Of a stretch of DNA of 64,000 nt, positions 28,336 to 54,303 are shown piece by piece. Position 1 is the stretch's first letter; every line of letters starts with the position of its first letter. This DNA is from an uncultured Candidatus Saccharibacteria bacterium (lineage in GTDB: Bacteria > Patescibacteriota > WWE3 > UBA101185 > UBA10185), in assembly GCA_964643995.1 (NCBI GenBank), contig CAZXUJ010000001.1, forward strand, positions 69,622 to 133,621. The letters are read 5' to 3'. A program made the position numbers and the translations under genes. Below the pieces are notes generated by a model that did not search any database, was not told the origin of the DNA, and saw only the letters and a program-made list of their open reading frames with translations.

Positions 28336-28393
28336 AGATACAACAATTATATATTTGATGTGACATATTAGAAAGCGTAAGATTAACCAATAT

Positions 28394-30257: not shown

Positions 30258-30882
30258 AGAGGCAATTGCAAAAAAATACAACTCTGAACTAGAAGGAAAC
30301 CCTTACGGATCTATGGCTACCATAAAAGGGTTTATAAAAGGAGGAACTAGAGTATTGGACGTGGGATGCGCAGGTGGATATTTAGGTAAACACTTCCCTA
30401 ACAATGAATTTTATGGAATTGATGGCAATGAGGTTGCGGTGAAAGAAGCAAAAAAGTCATATAAAGAGGTAGCACTAGTGGATCTTAACAAAATTCCCAA
30501 AGATTTGGTTTTCAGTGAAAAGTTTGATTATGTGATTTTCGCCGATGTTCTGGAACATCTCCTGCATCCAAAGGAAATATTGCAACACTTTAGAAACTAC
30601 CTCAAGGATGGAGGGCAAATAATAGTTTCGGTTCCAAATGTAGCGTTATGGAGGGTTAGGTTAAACCTATTACTGGGCAGATTTGAATACACTGATTATG
30701 GTGTTTTAGATAGAACTCATGTACATTTGTATACATTCAAAAGTACAAGAGAGCTTTTGCAATCTGCAGGACTTAGGGTCAAATACTCTACAGGTGCGGC
30801 CTATGCACTGGGACCCCTAGCTAAACTGCCATCACCTGCCAAGGAATTATTTAGCGTGCACGTTATAATGGTTGCGGAATGA
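30250..30882 (+). CDS. Class I SAM-dependent methyltransferase
   Basis: VLDVGCAGGYLG motif I and FDYVIFADVLEHLLHP. Confidence 0.75.
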   Translation: MYKEAIAKKYNSELEGNPYGSMATIKGFIKGGTRVLDVGCAGGYLGKHFPNNEFYGIDGNEVAVKEAKKSYKEVALVDLNKIPKDLVFSEKFDYVIFADVLEHLLHPKEILQHFRNYLKDGGQIIVSVPNVALWRVRLNLLLGRFEYTDYGVLDRTHVHLYTFKSTRELLQSAGLRVKYSTGAAYALGPLAKLPSPAKELFSVHVIMVAE

Positions 30883-32945: not shown

Positions 32946-34672
32946 GTTACTTATACAACTATATTATAGGGTTACTCGAGGATAACACCGGTATTTTTTA
33001 TACACATTGGCTACTAAAAAACCCACAATTTAGTAGTTATATAGGATACCCCACTGGACAACCAGTAGACTTTACCAACACAAGCGAACCGTTATTTCTT
33101 CGAGGTTTTTTCTTCCTAATGGCGAACTTTAATACGGTAGCTTTCTACAACATTTTTATATTGGTATCACTTGGACTTGTGTTGATAACCACATATCTGC
33201 TTTTCAATCATTTCACGAAAACCAAAATAGTAAGCATTATGCTAGCAACACTCTTTACACTCTCCCCATATTTTTATTATCAATCAAGGTCACATGTAAC
33301 TCTTATTCAGTTTTGGCTAGTAGTTTTGTTCGTATATTTTTTGATACAAGCTAAAAGTTTTAAACACTTTTTTTGGCTTGGGCTATATCTTACCCTTGTA
33401 ACTTTAGTTAGTAACTATTTTGCATACTTCTGTTTGTTGATACTAGGTGGTTACTTTTTTGCAAAACAGATAACATACAAAATCTATGGTCTAAAGTATT
33501 GGAGTATGCAAGTGTGGCTGAAATATCTGTTTTGCCTAATCACTTTCTTTGTGACAACCGTTCCAATACTGATGCCGTATTTTAGAGCCTTTTATGGGAC
33601 CAATGACAGCAGTAACCAAACAGAGAGCACTGATTCAAAAGGACTGAATAGAACACTGGAAGACTTTTTTATATTTTCTTCACGACCGTGGTATTTTGTA
33701 CTACCCTCAATAGATAATCCATTTGTTGGTAACGTCACCAACGAAACAGTAAGGTGGCTACAAAATGATTGGGGATATTTCCTTACCCAAAACTACTTTA
33801 AAAGTGAGCACAGTGCTAGCTTTCTCGGCTGGATTAACATTGTGATGGCATCCTACGGAGTTTATCTAGTTATCAGAAGACTTAGAGAAAAACAACTTAC
33901 CACGCCAACAAGTATAGAAGACTCTACTGAATTAAAAATTCTTGCACTCGTGCTAGTTGCAATTTTCTTGGGCATTCTTACGCTTCCTCCATATATTACT
34001 TTGGGTGGAATAAAACTTCATATGCCAAGTTACATCTTATATAAGGTGTTTCCAATGTTCAGAGTACTGACAAGATTAGGTACTGTTATTTTACTTATTG
34101 TGCTAGTCCCCACTGCATATACGTACAAGGAATCTATAACTAAAATAAAGGAGAAAAAGGGAGTATTGGTAAGCACACTACTTATACTGCCGATATATGC
34201 TTTTAGTTTAGCAGAGTTTTTTGTTCCAATAAAACTTACAGATGTGTCACAAATGCCTGAAGTGTTTGAATATGTGAAAACGCAGACACCACAAGATTCA
34301 GTTATTGCGGTGTTTCCATACAGTAGAACAAACACTGCGATGTTCTGGATTAAAGATTTTCAAAGAGCAGTTGTTAATCCTAGAGAGTTCAAGGATCCAA
34401 AGAGAGGTTTTAACTCTGAGAATTTTACAAAGGAGTTAACTAAGTGTGAAGGATTAAGATCTGCAGCTCACTTAGGGGTGAATTATATTGTGGTATTTCC
34501 AAATGCGAATGAAAACACAGAAATTTTTGATAAAACCGCCGGACTTGAAAAAATTGCAGAATTCAGTGCAAGTACAACAAAACAGCGAGTTTACAAATAT
34601 AGCAGCATTGGGTATGCTGGTGCTAACGAAGGCGCAGTAGTATACAAGTTAACGAAAGTCACCTGCGAGTAA
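32942..34672 (+). CDS. Second polytopic membrane protein, putative GT-C-fold glycosyltransferase
   Basis: 576 aa with 10 or more TM helices and a C-terminal soluble domain. 4-nt overlap with the upstream gene. Confidence 0.4.
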   Translation: MSYLYNYIIGLLEDNTGIFYTHWLLKNPQFSSYIGYPTGQPVDFTNTSEPLFLRGFFFLMANFNTVAFYNIFILVSLGLVLITTYLLFNHFTKTKIVSIMLATLFTLSPYFYYQSRSHVTLIQFWLVVLFVYFLIQAKSFKHFFWLGLYLTLVTLVSNYFAYFCLLILGGYFFAKQITYKIYGLKYWSMQVWLKYLFCLITFFVTTVPILMPYFRAFYGTNDSSNQTESTDSKGLNRTLEDFFIFSSRPWYFVLPSIDNPFVGNVTNETVRWLQNDWGYFLTQNYFKSEHSASFLGWINIVMASYGVYLVIRRLREKQLTTPTSIEDSTELKILALVLVAIFLGILTLPPYITLGGIKLHMPSYILYKVFPMFRVLTRLGTVILLIVLVPTAYTYKESITKIKEKKGVLVSTLLILPIYAFSLAEFFVPIKLTDVSQMPEVFEYVKTQTPQDSVIAVFPYSRTNTAMFWIKDFQRAVVNPREFKDPKRGFNSENFTKELTKCEGLRSAAHLGVNYIVVFPNANENTEIFDKTAGLEKIAEFSASTTKQRVYKYSSIGYAGANEGAVVYKLTKVTCE

Positions 34673-34676
34673 ATTA

Positions 34677-35051
34677 ATGAGTGTAAATAACCTAATTGTA
34701 ATACTTTTAGTAATAATGCTTATTGGGATAGTTTTTTTATCAACTAAAAGAAGAATTGAATTGACGGTTCTAGTTTCAATGTTAACAGGGATTACTATGC
34801 TTTACATTGTGAAATTACCGTTTCTTATTAATACTATCAGTATTGTATTTATACTCTTACTACTTATCTGGGCGTTTAAAATTTCTCGAGATATTATCTA
34901 CATCGGAGCTATATTTTTTATATTGTGTAGTGCTGTTTTTCTTCAGTTACAATTTGAACTACCTGCTAAATTTTCGGGGACACTCAGTTTCTTTTTACTG
35001 TGTATTGGTGTAGCTAAGGACATACTTTATGAAAAAACTTTTTCTAAGTAG
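34677..35051 (+). CDS. Small 4-TM membrane protein
   Basis: 124 aa and strongly hydrophobic. Lies within the operon. Confidence 0.4.
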   Translation: MSVNNLIVILLVIMLIGIVFLSTKRRIELTVLVSMLTGITMLYIVKLPFLINTISIVFILLLLIWAFKISRDIIYIGAIFFILCSAVFLQLQFELPAKFSGTLSFFLLCIGVAKDILYEKTFSK

Positions 35052-37116
35052 CATTCTCTGCCTTGCGATGCTATCAATAGGATTTTTCAAAACAACAGCT
35101 GCTGATAAGACAGGCTATTTTGCAAGGCTTCTATCCAGCTGGGATATAGATATATATACGCTCAATGAAAATGTAGAAACTAAGAAATGGGAACTACCAA
35201 AAGACAACGAAGACGACTTTCTACTCCTAACCACCAATCAAATGACACTGATTGGAATGAATCTAGATATGCTACTTTCATACAATAAAGTGATATTAGT
35301 ATGTGACACTAGCGTGGAGTTAAGTAAAGAACTTGCGTGTAGTTTTGATGGTATTACTACCACTTTTCAAAAAACAGAGTTGGCATCGGACAATAGTAAT
35401 AGTATTTTGAACATATTTCTTGGAAACACCAATTTGATAGTTATCCCAGAAGCCGGATTTGTACTACCTAAAAATACCGCTGAAACTACTGCCTATTTTG
35501 AAGCACTTGCTATCTCAAGAGAAAATAAGGCACAAAACAGTGAGGAGAACACTAGGACCGATACTGCAAAGCCTCAATCTGTAGTTATCGAAAACTCAGA
35601 ATTGATAGGTTATTTAGTATTTTTATTACTATTCAATTTTATAGTCGTAATGCCGATAAAAAAATTAAGCAGTACTGGCCGAGTAACATTACGAAATATG
35701 TACACTCAGCAACTTGGCGAACTTAAGAGATTCGTTGATATGTACGAGCCTTTTTCAAAATATTTAGTTACGATGGGGATCTGTGTAAACATCATTGTAG
35801 GAGGTGTTTTTCTGCTGAACAACGGGTTAAGGCTATTACTAGATGCGGCCAAAACACTTCTAGCAACACCAACATTAGCAGACATTGTTGGTTTGGAAAT
35901 CTTCAGTTCCCGATATGCACTAGTATTAGTAATAGTAAATATTCTGTTGCTTGGCGTTTTAAGCCCCATGGTTATTGATAGAGTAATCGCAAACCTAAAC
36001 ATAAAGATGCTGTTACCACAGCACAAAATAAAAGATGATATAGCCAAGTGGATAGTGATAGTTTTCGGTATAGCGGGAATTATGATTGCTTCTACTGGGA
36101 CAATTGCTGAAACACATCATTTATTAACTGCAGTTTTACTGGTTATAACCTATATACTTTTTGTGTCACATGAGTTTAAATTCACGGTTAAAGAAAAATT
36201 ACTGGCTACATGTGTTATAGCAACTGTGGCAATTGTTGTACCAAGTTATAGTTACTACTCTCAGGAGATTTCGATACATATAACTGAAGAAAAATTGTTC
36301 AGTGACTCTGAGAGAATAGTTGTATTGCCATACAAAAGAGTTATAACTAAAAACACAAAAATAAAAGAGTTCACTACAGGAATTGATTTTCCAATCTTTA
36401 TTGAACACCAACTTATATACCACCCAAGTTACCCGAACATTGTCAACAAAAATATTGAAAGCATTGATCTAACAAATAACTACATGGTAGTAACTAAAGG
36501 TAAAAAAGACTACATCAACACCTTGCTTTCATTTCCAATATTACTAAAACACGTTGAGGCAAATGGTGTAAGTGAGTTCTTTTATACCGAAACAAACTTT
36601 GCACAAACAGATACCGTAGCAGTCAAAATGACAATAGATTGTTCAAAAGATACGTCAGCAAAGGAAATATATCTAGAAAAGTATAGGTTATCTACGGACC
36701 CCGAACAATTTAACTTACTTATTTTTCCAGGATGCACACCAATGCAAAAGGAACTAACATATACAGCTCCAATTGATACAAGATATATGCAACAACCTGG
36801 TATCTTTCAAATTCAAAACTTCTCAAAAGTTAGATTTAGTAAAATAGTGCTCCAAGTCAATGGCGTTGATGTGGAACCAAAGTATATTAAGACTCCAAAC
36901 GACTACCAACAACTTGGCACAGGACAAAATAAGCTAGACTCCACAGAACTGTATGTTTATTCCCAAGAAACTGAGGATGATACAAAGTATAAAAACACGA
37001 CCAAGGACGTAAACATAGGTTCACTCATAAATACTGCCCTAGAAACTATGAATATAGAAAATAATTTCGTAATGTGGTCAAGTGCAGAAAATGCAATAAT
37101 TAAAAACGTACAGTAA
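35029..37116 (+). CDS. Hypothetical secreted/membrane protein (signal peptide, central 6-TM block, C-terminal domain)
   Basis: 695 aa. The signal peptide is MKKLFLSSILCLAMLSIGFF, and the hydrophobic block spans about aa 190-400. Confidence 0.45.
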   Translation: MKKLFLSSILCLAMLSIGFFKTTAADKTGYFARLLSSWDIDIYTLNENVETKKWELPKDNEDDFLLLTTNQMTLIGMNLDMLLSYNKVILVCDTSVELSKELACSFDGITTTFQKTELASDNSNSILNIFLGNTNLIVIPEAGFVLPKNTAETTAYFEALAISRENKAQNSEENTRTDTAKPQSVVIENSELIGYLVFLLLFNFIVVMPIKKLSSTGRVTLRNMYTQQLGELKRFVDMYEPFSKYLVTMGICVNIIVGGVFLLNNGLRLLLDAAKTLLATPTLADIVGLEIFSSRYALVLVIVNILLLGVLSPMVIDRVIANLNIKMLLPQHKIKDDIAKWIVIVFGIAGIMIASTGTIAETHHLLTAVLLVITYILFVSHEFKFTVKEKLLATCVIATVAIVVPSYSYYSQEISIHITEEKLFSDSERIVVLPYKRVITKNTKIKEFTTGIDFPIFIEHQLIYHPSYPNIVNKNIESIDLTNNYMVVTKGKKDYINTLLSFPILLKHVEANGVSEFFYTETNFAQTDTVAVKMTIDCSKDTSAKEIYLEKYRLSTDPEQFNLLIFPGCTPMQKELTYTAPIDTRYMQQPGIFQIQNFSKVRFSKIVLQVNGVDVEPKYIKTPNDYQQLGTGQNKLDSTELYVYSQETEDDTKYKNTTKDVNIGSLINTALETMNIENNFVMWSSAENAIIKNVQ

Positions 37117-37122
37117 AAGATT

Positions 37123-38292
37123 ATGAAAATCGCATTTTATATAACTACAATTTTAGAACAGGGAGGTGGAAGTCAGGAATATCTTATAACAACAGCTAAA
37201 AAGCTTTCGGAACTTTATGGTCATAATGTTGACATTGTAGGGCTTGATGACAAATATACAGTTACATACTTAAGATTTTTCTTATGTATTTTTTATCTTA
37301 AATACGTGCGCAAATCGCATTTTTACAATGAAAGTCTCACCTCAATAAGGGCAAGGTTAGGAAAAGTTAAGTATGTGAAGTGCAAAAGCTTTAAGGAACT
37401 GAGGGATACCTTAAGTAAATATGACGTAGTATATAGTAAAAACGAGTTGTTAGAGGCTTTATTATTTAGTGGAGTTATAGGTTTTGAAAACATTGGTCCC
37501 GTAATATTCGCATGCGTAACAAGCATAAACTTTACTGGCAGTACTTCACCCCAAGCAATAATACGAAACAAATTATACAACGGAAGTGTTTACAAATTTC
37601 TTTGTCGCAATGTAAAAGCCTTTCACGTTCTAAATTCACACGACGAACATTTCCTACAAAAACTTTTCCCTAGCAAAAGAATATATAGGATTTGCCCATC
37701 ATTTAATTTCGACGAGTTTAAAAGACTTTCCAACGAGTATCCTGCAAACTTTGAGTTCGATGGTTCCGCAATAAACATAATTTCAGTGGGTAGACTAAGT
37801 ATTCAAAAAGGTACTGAAGAACTAATCAAACTTATAGACGAAATAAATGAACAGCAGCTTAATAACAAAGTTGTATGGTACATAGTCGGAAAAGGTGAAG
37901 AAGCTGCAAAGGTCGAGGCACTAGTCGCTAGATGGAAAAATGTAAAATATCTTGGTTACATAGAGAATAAATTCCTTCCAAGTATCCTAGAAAACATGAG
38001 TTTATATATATCCCTAAGCAAAGGTGAAACTTTTGGATATACTATCGTCGAAGCAAATACTTTTGAAGTACCAGTTATATCCTACGATCTTTCTGGACCA
38101 CGAGAACTTGTGGAACAAGGAAAAAATGGTTATTTAGCAAAAGATTATGAGGACTTCAAAAGAGCACTTATAGACTTTTTAGAAGGTGATCTTCACTTTA
38201 CGGATGTTGAGAAAGTAGTGCGGGATAGGCTGGATGCTAGGATAATTTATGGCAAAATATTAAAAATGTTCGAGGAGGTTTACAATAAATAG
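37123..38292 (+). CDS. Glycosyltransferase family 4 (GT-B)
   Basis: C-terminal EX7E-type motif ETFGYTIVEANTFEVPVISYDLSGPRELVEQGKNGYL. Confidence 0.8.
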   Translation: MKIAFYITTILEQGGGSQEYLITTAKKLSELYGHNVDIVGLDDKYTVTYLRFFLCIFYLKYVRKSHFYNESLTSIRARLGKVKYVKCKSFKELRDTLSKYDVVYSKNELLEALLFSGVIGFENIGPVIFACVTSINFTGSTSPQAIIRNKLYNGSVYKFLCRNVKAFHVLNSHDEHFLQKLFPSKRIYRICPSFNFDEFKRLSNEYPANFEFDGSAINIISVGRLSIQKGTEELIKLIDEINEQQLNNKVVWYIVGKGEEAAKVEALVARWKNVKYLGYIENKFLPSILENMSLYISLSKGETFGYTIVEANTFEVPVISYDLSGPRELVEQGKNGYLAKDYEDFKRALIDFLEGDLHFTDVEKVVRDRLDARIIYGKILKMFEEVYNK

Positions 38293-38293
38293 T

Positions 38294-39154
38294 ATGAATG
38301 AAGAAATACTCAACCTAGAAGGGTGCACAAAACGCAATAATAACCTTTACACATTTGACTCCAAGTTCTCTAGCGACCTTAAATTCTCAATTGAGAAATG
38401 GGACTCATGGTATAAAGAAAAGCTAAAGTCAGGATCATACAAAAAAGATTTCTACTACTATAAAGAAAATTATTTTCCACTTACTATTGCGCAACTTGAA
38501 AAAAGTAAGCCACTAAATAAGGATATTGTATTTTTGGAGATTGGAAGTGGAGAATTCTTTTTGGGAAATCTAATTGCAAACAGAGTTAAGTTGGTCATAG
38601 GAGTTGATCTGTGCCCTACAGCCCTAAAGATAGCCCAAGAAATGTTCGAAAATGCTGGAATAACAAATTATTTACTGATCCAAGCGGATATACTTGATAT
38701 GCCACTAAAAGATAATGTGATAGACCTAATATATGGTGGAGGAACTATTGAACATTTCAAAGACACACAAACCTGCATAGACGAACTATACAGAGTTCTT
38801 AAGCCAACAGGTGTGAGTTTCAACACTGTGCCCTACCTAAATATTGGGTCACTAACCTATCGGCAAATTTGGGGCAACATACCAAACTTCCCCATTTTGC
38901 GAGAACTAGCAGAACTTATACATATAAAAATACTTGGTGGAAAACACATGGTCTTCGGATATGAGTTTTCTTTTACTATCCCGCACTTACGCAAACTACA
39001 CGAAAAGGCAGGGTTCAAGAAAATTGAAATTACAAAGTTTGATGTGCACCTAAAGTTTGAGTATATACCTCATTGGCTTAGAAAACCTTTCATATGGTTA
39101 TCGTCAAACGTTGCAGCTTTTTGGCCAATGATCAAAGCTGTTGCTGTAAAATAA
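38294..39154 (+). CDS. Class I SAM-dependent methyltransferase
   Basis: VFLEIGSGEF motif I, GGGTIEHF and LKPTGVSF. Confidence 0.7.
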   Translation: MNEEILNLEGCTKRNNNLYTFDSKFSSDLKFSIEKWDSWYKEKLKSGSYKKDFYYYKENYFPLTIAQLEKSKPLNKDIVFLEIGSGEFFLGNLIANRVKLVIGVDLCPTALKIAQEMFENAGITNYLLIQADILDMPLKDNVIDLIYGGGTIEHFKDTQTCIDELYRVLKPTGVSFNTVPYLNIGSLTYRQIWGNIPNFPILRELAELIHIKILGGKHMVFGYEFSFTIPHLRKLHEKAGFKKIEITKFDVHLKFEYIPHWLRKPFIWLSSNVAAFWPMIKAVAVK

Positions 39155-44590: not shown

Positions 44591-45486
44591 ATGTTTAAAA
44601 AAATCCTAAATGTAAAATATGCAACCTGAATAATAATGTCATTAGACGTGGCCTTCGAAATGGAAAGATTAGATATAAATGTAACTCCTGTAATGCTTGG
44701 TTTTTTGTAGATAAATCCAAAGCTGTTAGCAATAAGAAAATATTAACTCATCATATCGATGGCACACCTTTTAGAGCTCTTGCCGAACAAAATAAATCTT
44801 CGGCAACAACAGTGTATCGTAAAAACCTTTCTGCTTTAAAACAACTGATTCATTGTGCCGATATAACTCGTAAATATTGTAATAGATATTGTGGAATATT
44901 AGTTGTTGACGGTAAATATCTTGCTGTCAGAAATTATGACCGTAAAATACCAGTGCTTTACGGTATTGATTACCTCTCCCACGATATCCCAAAATATAAG
45001 CCTTTTATGGCTGAAATAAACCAACTCTTTAAAAAGAAATTATCATACGGCGTTTTTGTAAACCAAGCTAAATCAATTTATGAAAAATATAAAGCTGATC
45101 CAAAATGTAAGTCAGTGATGCTTGATATGCGAGATAAATTACCACTTCTTCTTGCACATCTTCAAACTAAACACATCCCAAGAACAACTAATCTAATCGA
45201 ATGTTTTAACTCTCATCTTCAAGGTCGTTTAAAAACAATAAAAGGTTTTAAATCTTTTAAACATGCTGACCTTTGGTTAAATGCATACTTCATTCGTCGT
45301 AGATTTAAAAAATTTAAGGATTGTAAAGGTCAATTTAAATGCCTAAATGGTAGAAGATCAATCGATATTGTTGTAAACACAGAACTAGTTGGCCTTGGTA
45401 TAGTTTCATTACTAGCTATAGAAAAAGACCGCGAGTCTCTAAACCCATTGGTTAAAAAAACCCACGATTTAGTTGGCATGCTTTAA
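44591..45486 (+). mobile_element. IS1/IS1595-like transposase gene (Zn-ribbon plus DDE domain) needing a -1 shift at an A7 run
   Basis: After a 4-codon leader (ATG 44591, MFKK) and a -1 shift in AAAAAAA (44597-44603), the frame encodes PKCKICNLNNNVIRRGLRNGKIRYKCNSCNAWF (CxxC...CxxC ribbon), then a DDE region (VVDGKY...GIDYLSHD...TTNLIECFNSHLQGRLKTIKGFKSFK). No in-frame start codon exists for the long frame. Terminal inverted repeats were not confidently identified. Confidence 0.65.
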
Positions 45487-46041
45487 ATAAATCACAATAC
45501 CCAAAGAAAGTATTAAAAAGTTTTTGAGAATATACTGTCCAACAAGCGTTGGCACTAAAAAATTCTCCCAAGCTATTGCCGGTAAAAAGACTAATGGACC
45601 AAAAGTAGTCACTATGTGAACCACAGTAAGTGATAAGACTATTTTCTCCACTTTTGGGATGAGCCACAGTATTCCTATAAAAACCTCGAAATATCCGAGA
45701 ATTAGTATGAAAACGTCTATAGACATAAATGGAAAGGTTTTATCAAGCAGACTCGCTACCAACTCATGGGCAGGACTATATCCAATCAGTTTTAGACTAC
45801 CGAACCAAAAATAAACTATAAAAATAGAAATACGGGAAAACCAGATATAGTATTTCTCAAAAAAAGCATGCATGAAATAACGATAGTCCTTCTTGATTAT
45901 AAATTCAACTAGATCTATTCTTATGGCGAAGTTCCAATTAAATTTAGTTGTATGATGTACACTTATTTTATCTTTAGTATTAGGTATAGTTTTGATTTCT
46001 CTTGTGATTTCTACTTCCCTGCTATTCTCAAAACGAGTCAA
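45469..46041 (-). CDS. Hypothetical 5-TM membrane protein
   Basis: 190 aa and hydrophobic. Its 3' end overlaps the transposase 3' end by 18 nt. Confidence 0.45.
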   Translation of the reverse strand: MTRFENSREVEITREIKTIPNTKDKISVHHTTKFNWNFAIRIDLVEFIIKKDYRYFMHAFFEKYYIWFSRISIFIVYFWFGSLKLIGYSPAHELVASLLDKTFPFMSIDVFILILGYFEVFIGILWLIPKVEKIVLSLTVVHIVTTFGPLVFLPAIAWENFLVPTLVGQYILKNFLILSLGIVIYLKHAN

Positions 46042-46583
46042 TTGCCTTCCAAACGGAATTAAGGAGATATCTTGAACTTGTAGAGCTGATAAGCACTAGG
46101 AGACTTAAAAGCAAACGACATAGTGTTGATATAGTTACAAATGCCGAAATAATACAGGCATGCGTAAAGAGTTGGGGCACTAATTGTTATTCAAGGTGAA
46201 GACAGTAGTGAACAGATATCTGAGGGGGGAATAATTTTTGATAAGATCGTTTCAGGAGAGATTCTTTCGAGTATATTCGAACTTAGCACAGAAGAACATG
46301 ATGGTGCTGTGATAATTGAGCAGGATAGAATATTGAAATTTGGTGCGCAGTTACCCCTATCAATCAATTTTAGAGAAATAGGAAAGCATGGCACATTCAC
46401 AGTGCGGGGCGTGGACTAGCAGAAAAGTCTGATGCACCAGTGATTATAGTCTCAGAGGAAAAGTGTTTTATAAGTATTGCGTATAGAGGAAAACTTAAAA
46501 GACTTACAAATTACGATCAACTAGGACAAATTCTAGATAAAAAACTCAGGAATCAAGGAGAGGTCCTATGTCTTATAAAATAG
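46008..46583 (+). pseudogene. Diadenylate cyclase (CdaA/DacA-like DAC domain) pseudogene, 5'-truncated with at least 2 frameshifts
   Basis: Three frames spliced together: ...DIVTNAEIIQACVKS | GALIVIQGED...EEHDGAVIIEQDRILKFGAQLPLS...REIGKHG | HIHSAGRGLAEKSDAPVIIVSEEKCFISIAYRGKL. These match the DAC motifs GALIVI, HDGAVII, LPLS, (T)RH.AA.G.SE..DA and VVSEE.G.IS. There is no N-terminal TM region and no start codon. Confidence 0.6.
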
Positions 46584-46621
46584 CCGCAGTTTTTTTGGCA
46601 ATTATACTCAAATTTATATTA

Positions 46622-47515
46622 TTAAAAGCTCAGGAGATCAATTAATACAGTTCTAAGGTCCTTCTGAGTTGTTTTAAGTAAATTGGACTCCACATCATAC
46701 TCATATTCCGCAGGGATAGTGGTAGGAAATAAACCAAAGAGTTTTTCAATCTTCGTACCCATAAGAGTATATTTAACGGAATCCCCATTAACATTTACTG
46801 AGATTTCATCGACAGAGTCGAGCTTTTCCGAGGAAATTGTCTCACGTACAACTTTATCTGGAGTAGTTGTTAGATCCACAAGGTTTGTATCTGTTTCAAT
46901 AAAAAACTTGCCCTCCTCCTCGACTATTCTGTTTGTGGAACGCATCTTAACAGGCACACTATGTGTTACAACTTTTCTAGTAGGTTGTTCTTTCTTCACC
47001 TCTTCAGTTACCTCAACAGGCAAATCATTGACCAAGGCATCTAGATCGGCTGTGGTATCCTCACCACCGTCGTCTGGTGTAGGTAACAAAGAGTCTATTT
47101 CATTTAAATACTTTGCATCTTTGGAGGGTTGAGGGGTTTCTTTAAAATAAGTTTTGGCTGCTTCATTTGCTGCTTCCTTAGGATCGATACCCTTCTCAAC
47201 TACCACAACATTATCTGGTATATCCTTTACAGTTTCAGTCTCACGAAGCAAATTACCAGCCAGGTCATAGGTTCTTATTTTTATGTAAATCTTTCCATCA
47301 CGATATTCCTTTCGCATAACAGCTTTTTTTTTGCCTTCCTGCATGGTATTTTCAAAAACAGACCCCTCCTCAATATAAGTCTCCCCTGCTACTGCGATTG
47401 GGGATTCGCGCAAAAACGAGCCTGCTGCGACTACAAAAGAGATAAATAATCCCAAAGCAATAATCGGTAAATGAAGTGAGTAGAACGTGATTAATTTTGT
47501 TTTGGGCATATTCAA
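46622..47515 (-). CDS. Hypothetical secreted protein (N-terminal signal-anchor)
   Basis: 297 aa. A TM/signal (LITFYSLHLPIIALGLFISFVVAAG) precedes an acidic, Thr/Glu-rich extracellular region. Confidence 0.5.
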   Translation of the reverse strand: MNMPKTKLITFYSLHLPIIALGLFISFVVAAGSFLRESPIAVAGETYIEEGSVFENTMQEGKKKAVMRKEYRDGKIYIKIRTYDLAGNLLRETETVKDIPDNVVVVEKGIDPKEAANEAAKTYFKETPQPSKDAKYLNEIDSLLPTPDDGGEDTTADLDALVNDLPVEVTEEVKKEQPTRKVVTHSVPVKMRSTNRIVEEEGKFFIETDTNLVDLTTTPDKVVRETISSEKLDSVDEISVNVNGDSVKYTLMGTKIEKLFGLFPTTIPAEYEYDVESNLLKTTQKDLRTVLIDLLSF

Positions 47516-47580
47516 ATTGTATCAGCATCAATATAGAGTTACAATTTATTTACTATGGGAAAAGGCAGTGAGACATTACA

Positions 47581-48354
47581 TTGGTACCCGAACAAAGTAC
47601 AGAGCCAGTTACCGAGGAAGATGTAGATTGGTTAAGGGATCTAGTGGCTCGCTATGGTACAGATGATGACAATCCAACAGAAGATAGCGAGAAAATTGTA
47701 CAAAACATTTTGGCGGATACAGATGACCGAACTCCTGAAGAAATTATTGCACTGCAATTCGAGATGGAGGAAGCTGCAAGAGAAAGAAAACCTGGCAAAG
47801 GTGGAACCAAACCAAACACAAAACAAAAAAATGCCAGAGCAGCCCAGTTAAGAGAGGAACAGATAAGGAACTCGCGCGAAAACAGAAATGAAGAAACAAT
47901 ACAAACTTTGCAAACCCAACTAGAGGGAAGTGAACTTTTCAAACTTGTTAAAAATGATGATCCCGACGCCGACTTCTTCGTAGAAACGTACGCGCATTGG
48001 GTATGCGTATCGATTGAGAATCACGGCAATCCAGTGTTGACACAAGGCGATATCTCAATCGAGAATTTTAAGAGAGCCAGTGGTCCTGGTGGACAGAATA
48101 TGCAAAAAGGCGAATCAGCACATCGTGCAGGGCATGTCTGGTCTGGGATTGTAGTCGAAGCTAGCAATCGAAGTAGTGAACAAAGTGAGAGAGAAGCCAA
48201 AGAAAAGTTGGAGGTAAAACTTAAAGAAAATATTGCAACTTGGGAAAATTATCTAGGCACAGCGAAAATAGATATGAAACCTAACGAAGGTATCTGGGAT
48301 GCTAGGGAAAGAGCAATAAGAACTCAAGTATACAAAATGGCACGGGCAACATAA
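47581..48354 (+). CDS. Protein with a C-terminal RF-1-type GGQ peptidyl-tRNA hydrolase domain and a novel acidic N-terminal region
   Basis: TTG start. The C-terminal half contains RASGPGGQNMQKGESAHRAGHVWSGIVVEASNRSSEQSEREAKEKLEVKL, which aligns with the release-factor GGQ core (SGPGGQHVNKT-SAVR.TH.PTGIVV.CQ.ERSQ..N...A...L). The PxT/SPF codon-reader domains and the basic ArfB-type tail are absent. Confidence 0.65.
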   Translation: MVPEQSTEPVTEEDVDWLRDLVARYGTDDDNPTEDSEKIVQNILADTDDRTPEEIIALQFEMEEAARERKPGKGGTKPNTKQKNARAAQLREEQIRNSRENRNEETIQTLQTQLEGSELFKLVKNDDPDADFFVETYAHWVCVSIENHGNPVLTQGDISIENFKRASGPGGQNMQKGESAHRAGHVWSGIVVEASNRSSEQSEREAKEKLEVKLKENIATWENYLGTAKIDMKPNEGIWDARERAIRTQVYKMARAT

Positions 48355-48364
48355 AATCACCTTA

Positions 48365-49273
48365 ATGGGAAAAAGCCTAGATAAAAAATTAATACAACGA
48401 GAGCAAAAGTTCAGAGAACGTGTGTCTAGAACACTTAATGTTGGAGACGAAGTTATTGCGAGTATGTTTGGAGAGAAACTAAGTTGTTTGAGAATTAACA
48501 CTTTAAAGTTTAAACCTGAGGAAATATACGCAAAAATAAAAGATCTCGCAGAGCTTGAAAAGATCGACTGGATTGAAAATGTTTTTGTTATCAAAAAAGG
48601 CAAGGACAAGCTTACACACAGTGAATTTTTCGAAAACGGAGCTTACTATATCCAAAATTTATCAAGTCTAGTGCCCGTGTTAGTTCTTGACCCTAAGCCT
48701 AATGAAGCCATTCTTGACGTGTGTGCAGCACCAGGCGGTAAAACAACATATTTAGCTCAGCTCACCAAAAACCAAGCACAGCTAGTGATAAATGATGAAT
48801 CAAACATAAGATTGATGAGAACCAAACAACTATGCAAAAATTATGGAGTAAAATTGGCAGGAACATTTAATCAGCCAGCACAATACTTAACAAAACACCT
48901 TAATATAAAATTTGATGCTATATTGATCGACGCACCTTGTAGTGGAGAGGGACTTATAAATTTGAGTATACCGGAATCATTGCAATACTGGAGCACAAAA
49001 AAAATTAATAGACTAAAAAAACTGCAAAAGCGGATTTTGGAGGAATCCTATAAATTGTTGAAATCCGGTGGGAGAATAGTTTATGCCACATGCACAACCG
49101 CACCAGAAGAAAATGAGGAGGTGATTGCTAACCTATTAAAAAATCATAATGACGTAGAGAGTGTGGAAGTTATATTACCAATAAAAAATACAGTAACTGT
49201 AGACAATTCGGTGCACATAATCCCAGACAACATATTTCAAGCCTTCACGATCTCTACAATCATCAAACGATAA
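48365..49273 (+). CDS. rRNA (cytosine-C5) methyltransferase, RsmB/RsmF (NOL1/NOP2/Sun) family
   Basis: DVCAAPGGKTTYLAQL (SAM motif I), ILIDAPCSGEGL (motif IV with catalytic Cys) and VYATCTTAPEENEEVI (motif VI TC). Confidence 0.8.
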   Translation: MGKSLDKKLIQREQKFRERVSRTLNVGDEVIASMFGEKLSCLRINTLKFKPEEIYAKIKDLAELEKIDWIENVFVIKKGKDKLTHSEFFENGAYYIQNLSSLVPVLVLDPKPNEAILDVCAAPGGKTTYLAQLTKNQAQLVINDESNIRLMRTKQLCKNYGVKLAGTFNQPAQYLTKHLNIKFDAILIDAPCSGEGLINLSIPESLQYWSTKKINRLKKLQKRILEESYKLLKSGGRIVYATCTTAPEENEEVIANLLKNHNDVESVEVILPIKNTVTVDNSVHIIPDNIFQAFTISTIIKR

Positions 49274-49288
49274 ATTTGTTAGAATTAC

Positions 49289-50410
49289 TTGATGGAAAAA
49301 TTCGACGTCGAAAAAAAGTTGGTTAAGCTGATAGTTTCAAAGATCAGCGAGGGTGTGATAATCACAAGTTTGGACAGAAAGATTGTAGAATTCAGTGAAG
49401 GGGCTTCCAAGATTACAGGCTACACGCAACTGGAGACGTTTGATAAACCCGTGGAAGAGATTATAAAACTGATCAAAGATGACACCCCCATACCTGTTGA
49501 TGAATTCTGCCCGATTGAATCATTTGAGATAGATGGTGCAATTTTTAGCGAATCTGGGCTTAAGCTGACTACTAGAACTGGAGAGACAAAAATAGTAAAT
49601 ATCATAACTAACAAAATCAAAGAGGGCGGTGACATAAATATTGGCTGTGTAATAACTATCACTGATAAATCCAAAGAAACGGAGCTAGAACACATGAAAT
49701 TAGACTTCATATCAATGTCAGCACATGTTCTAAGAACACCAGTTACTATTATTCGTGGTTATGCACAAACACTACTAAAAGAAAGCACTATTTCAAAGTT
49801 AGAAGCCATAGAAATAGATTCAATCAATCAGATCGCTACAGCTGCAAATGATCTGCGGGATAGGATAGAAAATATGCTGGCACTATCAAATATAAAAGAT
49901 GGTGAAATCAGAGTTAATCCTATTCCTCTGAGTTTGGAAGCAACTGCAAAAACGGTGCTAGAAACTTTTAGAGCTAGAGCTAACGAAAAAAAACTTGAAT
50001 TAAAATATATACCACCAAGAGAAGAACTACCAAGAGCATATGCGGAAGTAGGAAAAATAAAGGATGTGTTGGAAAAACTAATCGACAATGCTATTAAGTT
50101 TACGGAGCAGGGTTCCATTGAGGTTTCGATAGAGCCAGAAGGGGAATTTCTTAAAACCATCGTAAAAGATACAGGTCCTGGAATTGCAGAAGAAGGTATT
50201 ACTCAGCTTTTCACTAAGTTTTATCGAGTAAAACGCAAAACACTAGAAATGGAGTCAGGAAATGGTCTAAGTCTATATACAAGCAGGCGTATAATTCGAG
50301 CGTTAGGTGGCGATATCGGAGTAGAATCTAAGCAAAGCGTAGGGTCAAAGTTCTATTTTACAGTGCCTACGTACAAATACGATCTAAACAAGAAAACACA
50401 ATTAATTTAA
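49289..50410 (+). CDS. Cytoplasmic sensor histidine kinase (PAS, HisKA, HATPase_c)
   Basis: H-box MSAHVLRTPVTIIRGY. ATPase motifs DTGPGIAEE and GNGLSLYTSRRIIRALGGDIGV. No TM segments, and it is an orphan. Confidence 0.85.
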   Translation: MMEKFDVEKKLVKLIVSKISEGVIITSLDRKIVEFSEGASKITGYTQLETFDKPVEEIIKLIKDDTPIPVDEFCPIESFEIDGAIFSESGLKLTTRTGETKIVNIITNKIKEGGDINIGCVITITDKSKETELEHMKLDFISMSAHVLRTPVTIIRGYAQTLLKESTISKLEAIEIDSINQIATAANDLRDRIENMLALSNIKDGEIRVNPIPLSLEATAKTVLETFRARANEKKLELKYIPPREELPRAYAEVGKIKDVLEKLIDNAIKFTEQGSIEVSIEPEGEFLKTIVKDTGPGIAEEGITQLFTKFYRVKRKTLEMESGNGLSLYTSRRIIRALGGDIGVESKQSVGSKFYFTVPTYKYDLNKKTQLI

Positions 50411-50559
50411 TATCTATTTGTTAAGTACTGACTGTACTGTCCTGCGATCAACAAAAAACTGATAATACCAACAATTAATAACGCAATGAATAAAGCAACA
50501 AAGTTAAATCCCCACCTTTTATTTGACTTATAAAGATCGTACACGTAAAAAAGTATATT

Positions 50560-51195
50560 ATGAATTTAAGGGAACTTCAAAACACACAGATAAAAGATTT
50601 AACCTTTAGCATAGTTGATACAGAAACTACCGGAATGTATTCGGAATTTAACCGGATAATGGATATAGGCATAGTTACAGTCAAAAATAATGTGGTTTTA
50701 GGCAAATGGGAAACTCTGATTGATCCAGAACAACAAATACCCTATTGGATTACAGAATTTACAAATCTTGATGATTTTAAAGTAAGGGGACAACCAAAGT
50801 TTGCCAACGTGATAAACGATATACAACAACGAATTGAAAACACTGTTTTCGTCGCACATAATGTTGGGTTTGACTATTGGTTTTTGCATCATGAGTTTAA
50901 GCGAGCGAATAGAGAATTTGGCGTACCAAAGCTATGCACAGTCCAACTTGCGCGAAAGTTGTTACCTCAACTGCGCTATGCCAATCTAGATCTGCTAGCA
51001 AACTTTTACGACATTACCATAGATAACAGACATAGAGCGTTACCCGACGCCGAAGCTACGGCGATCGTGTTCAGTAAATTACTTGATCTAGCAGTAAATA
51101 AATATGGTGTGCAGAATTTCTTTGATCTTGAGGCACTACAAAGGCTTAATGTAGCAAGAGACATAGATCGAAAGTCTATTGTATTATTTAGCTAA
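50560..51195 (+). CDS. DnaQ-like 3'-5' exonuclease (DNA polymerase III epsilon family)
   Basis: Exo I FSIVDTETTGM, Exo II VAHNVGFDYWFL, Exo III HRALPDAEATA. Confidence 0.8.
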   Translation: MNLRELQNTQIKDLTFSIVDTETTGMYSEFNRIMDIGIVTVKNNVVLGKWETLIDPEQQIPYWITEFTNLDDFKVRGQPKFANVINDIQQRIENTVFVAHNVGFDYWFLHHEFKRANREFGVPKLCTVQLARKLLPQLRYANLDLLANFYDITIDNRHRALPDAEATAIVFSKLLDLAVNKYGVQNFFDLEALQRLNVARDIDRKSIVLFS

Positions 51196-52424
51196 TGAAA
51201 TTTTACGATAAACAGAAAGACCCAAAATTTATTTTGGTGGTTTCTATACTCCTTACCTACATTGTAACCATATTCCTGTTGTCAATGAGTGTACGTAAAC
51301 TTAGTGGCAAACTAGGTAACATAAGCGAAGAGCTTATTACTGTTAAAACATCACAGGGAAACTTTGAAAAGAACTTTTCTGATGAACTTTTCTCAGAGCA
51401 TCTTGAAATAAGTGAAAAAAGGAAAATCGAAAATGAATTAGCTGTCTTGAAAATCGAACTAGAAAATCTTAAATCCAGCGAAGACACGACAATAGTTGAG
51501 ATAAATAAAATATTTGAGTTGTTAGAAAATTTCGAGCAAAAAGTAGTCAGAAACGATAAGGTAAAGATCGATTCGGAAAATGTAGATGAAAAAACAAAAG
51601 AATGGGGACTTCTATTGATTAACAAAGATTTTGAAACTATCCAAGATCAAATTGAAGAGAGCAACTCTAAGCTGGACACCAGCTACAATAAATACTTGGC
51701 ATCATTACCCCCACCAGCACCAATTGGAGGTGGCTACTCTTATACTACTGTGGACACAGAGCGTGGAAGGTTTGGTGTTTATTTGATTAAGGTGCCACTT
51801 TCTGAATATCGGGTCAAAACTGTTACGGCGGCCAAAGATGACTGTAGTGACAACTGTCCAACCAAAAGCTTAGCCGAATATGTAAACGAAAATAATGGTT
51901 CTGTAGGTATGAATGGTTCTTATTTTTGTCCACCTGACTACTCAAACTGCAGCGGAAAAGTTAACACTTTTGACTATGCTTTATACGATTCGAATGCTAG
52001 AAAATGGATTAACAAAGATGCACGCTCTTGGGGAGATACAGGTTTAATGACTTTTAACGGCAATAGCGCAAGATTTTACAAAAGATCCTCTGACTATGAT
52101 GGAGATGGTGTTGATGCCGCTATTTCCAATTACCCTGCCCTGCTAGAAGATGGCAATATCGCTGTTGATGAAGACATACTAACTTCATATCAAAAAGATG
52201 TTAAGGGTACACGTGGCGCTATAGGATTTGGAGGAGAAAACATATATCTCGCACTTATCTTAGGGGCAACAGTTGAGGATGCCGCCTATGCTATGAGGTC
52301 ACTAGGCGCGAGAGATGCATTAAATCTTGACGGTGGTGGCTCATCAGCAATGTACTCAAATGGGGGGTACATTGTGGGTCCCGGACGAAGTTTGCCTAAC
52401 GCTATTGTTCTAGTAAGAAATTAG
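51195..52424 (+). CDS. Membrane-anchored protein with a C-terminal phosphodiester-glycosidase (NAGPA-like) domain
   Basis: N-terminal TM, a coiled-coil of about 120 aa, and the C-terminal motif ALNLDGGGSSAMYSNGGYIVGP...PNAIVLV typical of PF09992. 1-nt overlap with the dnaQ-like gene. Confidence 0.6.
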   Translation: MKFYDKQKDPKFILVVSILLTYIVTIFLLSMSVRKLSGKLGNISEELITVKTSQGNFEKNFSDELFSEHLEISEKRKIENELAVLKIELENLKSSEDTTIVEINKIFELLENFEQKVVRNDKVKIDSENVDEKTKEWGLLLINKDFETIQDQIEESNSKLDTSYNKYLASLPPPAPIGGGYSYTTVDTERGRFGVYLIKVPLSEYRVKTVTAAKDDCSDNCPTKSLAEYVNENNGSVGMNGSYFCPPDYSNCSGKVNTFDYALYDSNARKWINKDARSWGDTGLMTFNGNSARFYKRSSDYDGDGVDAAISNYPALLEDGNIAVDEDILTSYQKDVKGTRGAIGFGGENIYLALILGATVEDAAYAMRSLGARDALNLDGGGSSAMYSNGGYIVGPGRSLPNAIVLVRN

Positions 52425-53700
52425 GTTCACTTTCGTAGTCGTAGTTATATCCAGTATCACGTGATAAAACTGTAGTATTTGGATGCTTTTCTTTCCATTT
52501 TGCCCAAGTGGTAGTTGTTGTAGGAATAACATTTAAAACGGCCTTGTTCTCAAATGCCGGACCAGATATAGCTTCACCTGTTGATTGTAACCACAAGCTT
52601 TCAATCTCAGAACGATCATAGATAATTGCATCACCTTCATATACATCACCCGAAAAACCAAACTTTGTATCGTACATACCTAGTAACCCGATATATGAAA
52701 CAGCAGTCTCACAAAAAGCACAGAAGTTTACAACAACAGGTGCTTCGTTATACATATCGTTTACAACTTTATGCCAGCGAAGTATTTTTCGGGGGTAAGC
52801 GCGCTGAATATCTAGGTAATTCACCCCAAAAACCACATCCTCATCTTTTAGCCATTCAGAAGAATCCAGTACAGACTCAAACTGTGGATAGTCTATTGGT
52901 GGGTAACAAGATTCTCTATCACAAAGTCTCTCAATTTTAGTCTTGTCAAAAACCAGGTCTTGAGGAGGTAGTAGTATGTCTTGAGCGCCAAACTTTGTTT
53001 CAACAAGGGATGCCACAGTTACCCAATTCTCAGGCAAATTATCCAAAAACCAAACTTGCAAACGCTTTTCATAGCCAAAATAAACAAAAACAGAAGTTAG
53101 CATCAAAATAATCCCAAAGATCTGACGAACTAAAACATGGTTTTGTTTTACAAAATTTAATTTGGAAGTAAACCTACTACCTTGCGTTGCAATTAACCAA
53201 AGTGGAACACCTACACCAATAGCATAGGCAAGGACCAAAGCAACTGAGGCTAGGGATATTTTGTTAACAGCTGCTAGCGTCGAAATAGCCGCTACGATTG
53301 GACCCACACAAGGGGTCCAAACTAAACCTAAACCAACACCAGTAAAAAAGCCACCTGAAAAACCAGGCCTCGTAGTCGTGGTAAATTTGCTAAAGAGGTG
53401 CTCAATGTAAAACTGAAGTTTTTCCCATATTGGAAACAATATTGATATACCAATACCAAACAAAAGAACCGATGCTGAGAGACGCAAAAAATCAGCAGAA
53501 ATCCCTAACAACGTAACAAATGCGGATAAAAATAGCGCAGCTGCAGAAAAACTTAAAACAAGTCCAATAATTACCCCCTTTACACGAGACTTATTTCCAT
53601 CCAGGCCGCTTGAAAGTATTATGGGCAATATTGGAAGAACACAAGGTGAAAAAACTGTCAGCATGCCGGATAAAAAAGCGACAGGGAGTAAAGTAAGCAT
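52402..53700 (-). CDS. CcdA/DsbD-type thiol-disulfide transmembrane electron transporter fused to a C-terminal DUF3179 domain
   Basis: N-terminal 6-TM CcdA core with LTVFSPCVLPILP and WTPCVGPIV cysteine motifs. The C-terminal 200 aa match DUF3179 (GVNYLDIQRAYPRKIL..HKVVND, FCAFCETAVSY CxxC, LSRDTGY). Confidence 0.75.
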   Translation of the reverse strand: MLTLLPVAFLSGMLTVFSPCVLPILPIILSSGLDGNKSRVKGVIIGLVLSFSAAALFLSAFVTLLGISADFLRLSASVLLFGIGISILFPIWEKLQFYIEHLFSKFTTTTRPGFSGGFFTGVGLGLVWTPCVGPIVAAISTLAAVNKISLASVALVLAYAIGVGVPLWLIATQGSRFTSKLNFVKQNHVLVRQIFGIILMLTSVFVYFGYEKRLQVWFLDNLPENWVTVASLVETKFGAQDILLPPQDLVFDKTKIERLCDRESCYPPIDYPQFESVLDSSEWLKDEDVVFGVNYLDIQRAYPRKILRWHKVVNDMYNEAPVVVNFCAFCETAVSYIGLLGMYDTKFGFSGDVYEGDAIIYDRSEIESLWLQSTGEAISGPAFENKAVLNVIPTTTTTWAKWKEKHPNTTVLSRDTGYNYDYESEPNFLLEQ

Positions 53701-53703
53701 ACT

Positions 53704-54303
53704 TTATAAGTTCTCCAATATTGTTTCTACCCCGCCTCCAAGCCATTTACTTATTTCCTTACCTTGGCGGTTTACGTGAACAAATGTATGTTGGGCTGTC
53801 ACATTGTATTGCCTCTTAAGATCTGTCTCAGTGTCATAATTTAGTTTTAAAATTGTAAGCCCTTTTGGTAAAAGGGTATGGTCTTTCTGAATGCTTTTAT
53901 CAGCAGAACGACAGGTAGGACACCAATCAGCGTAAAAAAACAGCAAAGCTTGACCTTCATCTTTGAGAATCTGATCCAAAGCTGTTTTGGAGTAATTTAC
54001 ATAATTTTGTTTTATAGGAGTACCTGCATTGGGATCAGCTACAGCAGGCGCATTTACAACAGGCTGTGTTGGCTGAGATTCTGCAGGAGCGGGTTCAGCA
54101 GAAACTTCTGGAGTCACCTCATTTATTGGAGGTGTTGGTTGCTCAGTTATAGTTTGTGATGATGGAGTAACTGTTACTTCAGGCGCACTTGGATCTTCAC
54201 GTAAAAACACGAGAAGACCAATCAATATAAAAACGCCAAACATGCTAACTAAAGCAACAACAGTGTTGGTTTTATTGTGATTAGGACTTGAAACCTCTTC
54301 CAT
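53704..54303 (-). CDS. Membrane-anchored thioredoxin-like protein (TlpA/ResA-like)
   Basis: N-terminal TM, a Pro/Thr-rich linker, and a thioredoxin fold with ALLFFYADWCPTCRS (WCxxC). Confidence 0.8.
   Translation of the reverse strand: MEEVSSPNHNKTNTVVALVSMFGVFILIGLLVFLREDPSAPEVTVTPSSQTITEQPTPPINEVTPEVSAEPAPAESQPTQPVVNAPAVADPNAGTPIKQNYVNYSKTALDQILKDEGQALLFFYADWCPTCRSADKSIQKDHTLLPKGLTILKLNYDTETDLKRQYNVTAQHTFVHVNRQGKEISKWLGGGVETILENL

Follow-up and report, generated by a model that had tools for sequence, protein, structure and literature searches.

The 64,000-nucleotide stretch analyzed here ("the window"), taken from contig CAZXUJ010000001.1 of an uncultured Candidatus Saccharibacteria bacterium, contains a gene that raises a simple question: what is the catalytic GGQ domain of the peptide chain release factors (RFs) doing in a protein that lacks the domains with which RF1 and RF2 recognize codons? 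The gene (47581..48354, + strand) starts with TTG and encodes a stand-alone GGQ protein of 257 amino acids (aa) plus stop codon, referred to below as the query. The open reading frame (ORF) is real; the identical protein is called in two independent assemblies. Our comparisons of sequence show that the query places a known catalytic domain within an architecture that is new and conserved. By these comparisons it is neither RF1/RF2, PrfH nor ArfB, and it may represent a novel type of factor that rescues stalled ribosomes.

The GGQ core

The core extends over 48031..48270 (+ strand, aa 151-230) and was located with Pfam, hhalign, AlphaFold2 (AF2) and Foldseek as a strand, the GGQ loop, two further strands and a long helix. 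The GGQ codons lie at 48088-48096 (aa 170-172), within SGPGGQ. The Pfam RF-1 model (PF00472) matches aa 155-252 at 41.2 bits (E-value 1.9e-10) against a gathering cut-off of 35 bits, which makes the protein a member of the superfamily. With hhalign, the family described below aligns to five true PrfH proteins at 99.7% probability over 64 columns, and to twelve RF1/RF2 proteins at 99.8% over 71 columns. The aligned stretch is the GGQ core alone (query aa about 150-220), with no alignment to the PrfH or RF1/RF2 profiles before or after it.

The NCBIfam models of PrfH, RF2, RF1 and ArfB match only around the GGQ loop, with scores of 15-49 bits vs cut-offs of 100-423. The best of them is the PrfH model TIGR03072 (E-value 5.3e-13, 49 bits), which is matched at profile positions 99-167 only and has a cut-off of 166.65 bits over its full 200 positions; by comparison, the scores of five true PrfH proteins over positions 1-200 are 188-237 bits. 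The prfA, prfB and PRK00591 models give 31-36 bits vs cut-offs of 370-423, and the ArfB model NF006718 gives 15 bits vs 100, over just 27 residues around the GGQ loop. Sequence matches in the PDB (RF2, PrfH, RF1) are likewise confined to the GGQ region, and the PCRF domain of RF1/RF2 (PF03462) finds no match even at E-values up to 10. Since the Pfam match exceeds its cut-off and the NCBIfam and PDB matches go no further than the GGQ region, the GGQ domain is real and codon-recognition domains are absent.

At least 90% of 50 family members share eight residues of the core (G170, G171, Q172, K176, H185, R197, A206 and W221), and the query keeps the residues that are shared throughout release factors, namely G170, G171, Q172, K176, H185 and R197. 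A scan of species genomes returned a single locus, from Planctomycetota, which is 29% identical with a match limited to the GGQ region. The core is followed by a C-terminal helix (48271..48351, + strand, aa 231-257; H238-255) that is weakly basic, with a net charge of +2, and conserved within the clade of the query. Across the family, the mean net charge of the C-terminal part is -0.8.

These results bear out much of an earlier note on this DNA, which had described a stand-alone RF-1-type GGQ protein atypical for RF1/RF2, PrfH and ArfB. The Pfam and hhalign scores, together with the Foldseek superposition on domain 3 of RF1/RF2, agree on the identity of the domain, and the GGQ region aligns soundly under statistical scrutiny. 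Every family cut-off is missed by a wide margin, with homology restricted to about 64-71 residues. The codon-recognition domains, which the note had found wanting, yield no PCRF match, and the last 27 aa, at net +2, do not form the ArfB-type basic tail whose absence it had reported.

The front module

The region ahead of the core, here called the front module, is modeled in neither Pfam nor NCBIfam. It begins with an acidic head (47581..47775, + strand, aa 1-65) of net charge -17 and isoelectric point (pI) 4.05, in which helices H12-25, H35-49 and H52-67 are predicted. A basic segment follows (47776..47925, + strand, aa 66-115; 12 Lys/Arg, pI 10.5), composed of a flexible Gly/Pro/Lys stretch (RERKPGKGGTKPNTKQK) and then the long helix H80-114. 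The third element is a helical module (47926..48030, + strand, aa 116-150; H118-124, H130-146), which is acidic again and contains the family-defining residues Y137 and W140. The earlier note had described a single acidic N-terminal region of 150 aa; this holds for aa 1-65 and not for the basic segment, and aa 116-150 form a conserved helix. The note thereby overlooked the main feature of the region, the conserved basic and helical elements by which the family is defined.

Among 50 family members, at least 90% have Y137 and W140. The Y..W motif is present in 87 of 88 members, at a median of 32 residues before GGQ, and its helix has no counterpart in the PrfH or RF1/RF2 profiles. The placement of the basic segment is similarly regular: in the 88 members, the most basic 15-mer (median net charge +6) is centered a median of 89 residues before GGQ, with an interquartile range of 82-94. 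When the 88 members are anchored on GGQ alone and the mean net charge is computed per 10 residues, the profile is about -2.2 at 130 to 101 residues upstream of GGQ, rises to between +0.9 and +2.6 at 100 to 71 residues upstream, and returns to -2.2 immediately ahead of the first strand.

The head of the query is longer than is usual in the family, at 68 aa and net charge -17 vs a median of 25 aa and -6. Its first ~50 aa are specific to the clade of the query, where the motif DWLRDLVARYG is common to proteins P0002, P0154 and P0009.

Definition of the family

Searches of a word-indexed protein collection returned only three close relatives of the query. The front module searched alone in this way gave no match, and the full family profile was swamped by RF1/RF2. 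We therefore defined the family with an exhaustive HMMER search and local hidden Markov models (HMMs). The HMMER search of 1.84 billion representative proteins yielded 422 matches. Many of the best 150 are 175-260 aa long, with a profile match that extends far upstream of the GGQ core. Typical family members have about 200 aa and carry GGQ at about residue 110-130. An alignment of 50 members displays an acidic head, a Gly-rich/basic stretch, the Tyr/Trp helix, the GGQ core and a helix bearing the Trp at W221. In the family plan, the basic stretch is flexible, rich in Gly/Lys and continued by a helix of 30-35 residues, and the core is followed by one or two C-terminal helices.

An HMM of the front module, built from the region of query aa 66-150 only, was run on 277 proteins and matched 93 of them. 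None of these is RF1, RF2 or PrfH; 87 are among the best 150 representatives, and 44 had not been used in building the HMM. At least 87 of the best 150 of the 422 HMMER matches thus bear the front module, and GGQ is kept in 92 of the 93 module-bearing proteins. Since the clade of the query is divergent, a stricter control HMM was built from 85 N-terminal parts of the main family only, with the query's clade excluded. It matches the N-terminal part of the query at 53 bits (E-value 3e-16), and among 168 targets it matched family proteins only, with no RF1, RF2, PrfH or short GGQ protein recovered. The N-module HMM found nothing in 80 metagenomic GGQ loci or in the 80 best viral GGQ loci, and a metagenome scan returned no close relatives of the query. 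These comparisons indicate that the front module is a real and specific homology unit that defines the family, and that the query is a member of a divergent, long-headed subclade of this unnamed stand-alone GGQ family.

In a neighbor-joining tree of the 68-aa core, which is a short region analyzed by a crude method, 81 main-family cores form a clean clade together with P0278-P0280, family proteins that were fetched after the HMM labeling. Just two members carry names, both being "hypothetical proteins" of candidate division WWE3, for which the UniRef label reads "class I peptide chain release factors domain-containing". For this reason, a distribution of the family across candidate phyla is a lead, not a result. 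Full-text literature searches found no description of a GGQ family with this front module.

Predicted structure

The AF2 model of the query has a mean predicted local distance difference test score (pLDDT) of 86.5. Ahead of the core it predicts helices at 12-25, 35-49, 52-67, 80-114 (35 residues), 118-124 and 130-146. The core is composed of a strand at 158-164, the GGQ loop, strands at 179-185 and 191-195, and a helix at 199-227; the C-terminal helix is at 238-255. Helix 80-114 is predicted with high confidence (pLDDT 89-97), and the basic stretch ahead of it with lower confidence (block-mean pLDDT 62-75). The model of a typical WWE3 member (pLDDT 88.1) has an element order identical to that of the query.

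A Foldseek search of the PDB matched only 60-90 residues, all of them in the GGQ domain, with query-normalized template modeling (TM) scores of at most 0.32. Domain 3 of RF1/RF2 superposes over about 75-90 residues at 2.5-2.7 Å, and RF1, RF2, PrfH and mtRF1a rank ahead of C12orf65, ArfB and ICT1. Among solved structures, this search gave no match to the front module.

Selection

Ratios of nonsynonymous to synonymous substitution rates (dN/dS) were obtained by comparison with a 77%-identical orthologue, at which distance synonymous sites are near saturation. The ratio for the whole gene is about 0.06. The most constrained part is the basic segment (proportion of nonsynonymous differences, pN, 0.068; dN/dS about 0.03), and the GGQ core is similar, with a pN of 0.072. 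The acidic head is the least constrained, and is under purifying selection nonetheless (dN/dS 0.23). By its constraint and its conserved distance from GGQ, the basic segment appears to behave as a functional element.

Proposed function

We consider the most likely function to be stop-codon-independent hydrolysis of peptidyl-tRNA on stalled ribosomes without RF1/RF2, following the logic of ArfB in a reversed and more rigid layout, and we give this about an even chance. Hydrolysis in the peptidyl-transferase center is suggested by the conserved catalytic core, and independence from stop codons by the lack of a codon-reading domain. The ArfB-like logic is favored because the constrained basic segment lies about 90 residues away on the other side of GGQ, connected through a long helix. 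The GGQ core would enter the peptidyl-transferase center as release factors do. The basic segment and the helical spacer would take the place of the C-terminal tail and linker of ArfB, attached at the N-terminus instead; the segment could bind rRNA and sense an empty or abnormal A-site or mRNA channel, and the acidic head may mask it until the ribosome is reached. The genomic context, with housekeeping surroundings and no family-wide neighborhood, fits a single-component housekeeping factor. The new ribosome-rescue factor proposed in the earlier note therefore stands as a reasonable reading of a function that we infer from sequence.

A 2021 review names ArfB as the only known factor that rescues stalled bacterial ribosomes without recruiting RF1/RF2 (PMC8012679), and in the broadest survey of release-factor paralogues in bacteria, Burroughs and Aravind list RF1, RF2, ArfB and PrfH only (PMC6514570). 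If the proposal is true, bacteria would have a new way to rescue ribosomes, through one more widespread GGQ family in which the sensor is arranged differently. The family would also open an approach to translation quality control in bacteria with small genomes, most of them uncultured and little understood, and would show by a natural experiment to what extent the GGQ domain can be re-wired. Biochemical and cryo-electron microscopy work is practical because the family is short, soluble-looking and confidently modeled. More tentatively, and at distinctly longer odds than the function itself, the family could constitute an independently evolved class of RF-independent rescue factors in bacteria of the WWE3/Patescibacteria type. 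It would combine an N-terminal basic probe with a rigid helical ruler and use the acidic head as an off-switch until a stalled ribosome is encountered; the clade of the query, with its threefold longer head and a relative devoid of GGQ, would be a further specialization.

The main rival concerns the substrate. The protein may act on split 50S-peptidyl-tRNA in place of 70S non-stop complexes, as mtRF-R (C12orf65) does with MTRES1, with the front module binding the P-site tRNA or the subunit interface and not the mRNA channel. The helices of the front module are long and predicted with confidence, unlike a short disordered tail, no observed feature points specifically to the mRNA channel, and the Foldseek matches include the GGQ domains of mtRF-R (7a5h_C) and C12orf65 (2rsm). 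These matches, however, are limited to the GGQ domain and have E-values of 0.025-0.11 vs about 1e-3 for RF1/RF2/PrfH, and no conserved MTRES1-like partner gene occurs in any neighborhood examined. We rate release from split subunits as rather unlikely, if the strongest of the alternatives.

Several observations weigh against rescue of stalled ribosomes by catalysis. No link to tmRNA/SmpB is seen, with no tmRNA near the family genes, and none of ArfB, RF1, RF2 or SmpB is found among the ORFs of the 64-kb window. The same crude core tree puts the six proteins of the query's clade in a small clade of their own. Beside the catalytic loop, this clade has GGQNMQKGE where the family consensus is GGQNVNKVx, and it has RSSEQS vs the consensus RxQxxN. 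Finally, P0009, a full-length homologue of 280 aa (31% identity, E-value 3e-24) that carries the acidic-head motif, has a 12-residue deletion that removes the entire GGQ loop, and the scaffold may therefore have a role independent of catalysis.

The last of these points, the substitutions at family-conserved positions flanking the loop, the separate place in the tree and the strong constraint on the N-terminal basic segment would all suit a mainly non-catalytic ribosome-associated protein, structural or of hibernation type, for which the GGQ loop is dispensable at least in the query's clade. A precedent is ICT1, which became the mitochondrial ribosomal protein mL62. We regard this as improbable: nearly all module-bearing proteins (92/93) keep GGQ, GGQ, K176, H185 and R197 are intact in the query, purifying selection on its GGQ core (pN 0.072) is as strong as on any part of the gene, and P0009 is known from a single 2127-nt Logan contig.

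More improbable still is a very divergent PrfH that would rescue ribotoxin-damaged ribosomes together with an RNA-repair enzyme. TIGR03072 is indeed the best NCBIfam match, and PDB sequence searches place the PrfH chain 7sa4_8 among the top matches, but the query falls far short of the TIGR03072 cut-off, has no version of the recognition domain and is not in an operon with RtcB; no member of the RtcB family was found among the neighbors, the other window ORFs scanned or six family loci.

Start codon and upstream region

The divergent intergenic region at 47516..47580 (no strand assigned) was delimited by DNA alignment with a relative and from the sequence itself. Its segment 47516-47563 is almost identical to positions 7962-8012 of the relative's contig (L001), although the proteins of the two genomes are only 71-90% identical. 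TACAAT-like and TTGTA-like hexamers occur in this segment.

The start codon of the relative corresponds to an ATG at 47555, which is out of frame in the window. Between this ATG and the GGQ ORF lies an in-frame TGA (47569-47571), and the TTG at 47581 is therefore the first possible start; the exact position is uncertain by a few codons. Translation of the acidic head is shown by its conservation at the protein level in P0002, P0154 and P0009. A programmed frameshift like that of prfB was considered and rejected, since the in-frame TGA intervenes and no slippery site fits. The out-of-frame ATG is more simply explained by start-codon turnover.

Genomic context

Nine genes at 45469-54303 are collinear with L001 at 71-90% aa identity, the GGQ gene being 77% identical, and the GC content at the locus is unremarkable. 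The setting is thus core chromosomal; the accessory island in which the earlier note had placed the gene does not withstand this comparison. The note had also weighed a simpler possibility, that the gene is the organism's divergent ArfB with syntenic orthologues. Conserved orthologues in a syntenic core do exist, but the protein fails every ArfB feature tested.

The next gene (48365..49273, + strand), which begins 10 nt after the GGQ stop codon, encodes an RsmB/RsmF-like RNA m5C methyltransferase of NOL1/NOP2/Sun type with 302 aa. It matches the Pfam models Methyltr_RsmB-F (E-value 1.9e-46) and RsmF_N (E-value 4.9e-11); the protein is short and stays below all NCBIfam equivalog cut-offs (RsmB, RsmF, tRNA m5C49). 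It is a probable operon partner of the GGQ gene. No terminator-like site was found in 46400-52600. The adjacency is kept in the relative, within the clade only, and not in distant family members. Downstream of the methyltransferase gene are a histidine kinase, a DEDD exonuclease, a phosphodiester glycosidase and a DsbD/thioredoxin pair. Elsewhere, the window encodes LeuRS, TyrRS, a pseudouridine synthase, ClpB, PolA, tRNAs and a polysaccharide gene cluster.

Upstream, on the opposite strand, a divergent gene (46622..47515, - strand) encodes a 297-aa protein that keeps its place beside the GGQ gene within the clade, is 77% identical to its counterpart in L001 and belongs to no Pfam, NCBIfam, PADLOC or PHROGs family. 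An N-terminal hydrophobic segment, read from the translation, resembles a membrane anchor or signal. The earlier note's description of a gene next to secreted proteins holds for this one neighbor and not beyond it.

Synteny with the relative is eroded just upstream of the GGQ region, at a cdaA pseudogene and an IS256-like remnant. The degraded cdaA (diadenylate cyclase; 46038-46630, + strand) persists as four fragments in shifting frames, which match an intact 287-aa CdaA in L001 (6204-7067) at 52-58% identity. The matches cover aa 72-286, and for the initial ~70 residues of CdaA no significant match exists here (one 22-residue fragment, E-value 3.4). A 224-aa ORF (44812-45486, + strand) gives a weak match to an IS256-family transposase (NF033543, E-value 7.7e-6, 25 bits vs a cut-off of 150), and is probably a transposase remnant at the edge of the non-collinear region.

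A toxin or secreted effector that hydrolyzes peptidyl-tRNA in a competitor or host, also proposed in the earlier note, is the least probable reading of all: the seemingly membrane-anchored or secreted neighbor and the small variable stretch with transposase remnant and cdaA pseudogene 1-3 kb upstream are set against a protein that has no N-terminal hydrophobic segment and opens with an acidic head of net charge -17, and against the lack of a conserved immunity-like partner, the absence of module-bearing copies from the 80 best viral GGQ loci, PADLOC results of two weak matches to unrelated models (E-values about 3e-3 to 4e-3, 15 bits), PHROGs results of nothing besides the RF-1 domain, strong purifying selection (dN/dS about 0.06), and vertical-looking inheritance in a collinear housekeeping block where the gene has diverged like its neighbors. 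An origin in defense systems or phages was likewise rejected, as PADLOC and PHROGs turned up nothing for it beyond the RF-1 domain.

The neighborhood is not conserved in distant family members, whose neighbors include NusG/L11/L1, sortase/Rho and YchF/S6/SSB/S18. In loci of the WWE3 type, 0.75-1.5 kb without a called gene follow the family gene (L008 6693-8236; L010 6633-7527; L011 4126-4870). Rfam gives a tRNA-like match in two of these gaps (L010 7294-7376 and L011 4787-4869) that is not called by ARAGORN. No Rfam family was found in the L008 gap, and tmRNA was not found in any of the WWE3 gaps.

Two further regions of the window may be recorded. In a 1958-aa protein (13868-19744, - strand), the only recognized families are fibronectin type III and purple-acid-phosphatase N-terminal-type domains, located near the C-terminal third; its gene adjoins an ABC/FtsX transporter pair. 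At 26057-39154, a sugar-modification cluster encodes epimerases/dehydratases, glycosyltransferases and several methyltransferases, together with three large proteins without a Pfam family (30879-32945, 32942-34672 and 35029-37116).

Comparison with known GGQ systems

The query resembles RF1/RF2 in domain 3, where the fold and the catalytic loop are the same (Foldseek, 2.5-2.7 Å over about 75 residues). It differs from them in having no domain 1, no PCRF superdomain 2/4 and no counterpart of the RF C-terminal part.

PrfH is similar in size to typical members of the present family (about 200 aa), and the GGQ cores share 42% identity over 64 aligned profile columns. In the published description, PrfH keeps a version of the RF codon/anticodon-recognition domain (PMC6514570), whereas the front of the query is predicted to be entirely helical and has no such version. 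Nor does an RtcB partner stand beside the GGQ gene, as judged from the window ORFs scanned and the six family loci.

Like C12orf65/mtRF-R, the query joins a GGQ domain to charged helical extensions and may act without reading a codon (PMC6514570). C12orf65, which works with MTRES1, has a basic extension at its C-terminus. Only its GGQ domain matches the query, less strongly than RF1/RF2 do.

The last comparison is with ArfB/ICT1. In ArfB, GGQ occupies residues 25-27, and a basic C-terminal tail at residues 115-140, about 90-110 residues away, probes the empty mRNA channel (PMC8012679). The query has the same parts in reverse: its basic segment is N-terminal to the GGQ core, its C-terminus is not basic, and its core occupies aa 151-230 of 257, whereas the ArfB domain is at the N-terminus (residues about 1-100). 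Basic segment and core are connected by a long, confidently predicted helix and the Y..W helix, as opposed to the 12-residue flexible linker of ArfB; an acidic head is present in addition, and the core is closer to RF1/RF2/PrfH than to ArfB in sequence and fold searches. The likenesses lie in the overall plan. The query and ArfB/ICT1 are stand-alone GGQ domains without codon-recognition domains, each with a positively charged segment at a similar distance of about 90 residues from GGQ. Burroughs and Aravind found no conserved gene neighborhood for ArfB (PMC6514570), and the query is apparently a single-gene factor of the same kind. They also linked ArfB to an rRNA pseudouridine synthase (PMC6514570), to which the rRNA-methyltransferase-like gene beside the GGQ gene is a parallel.

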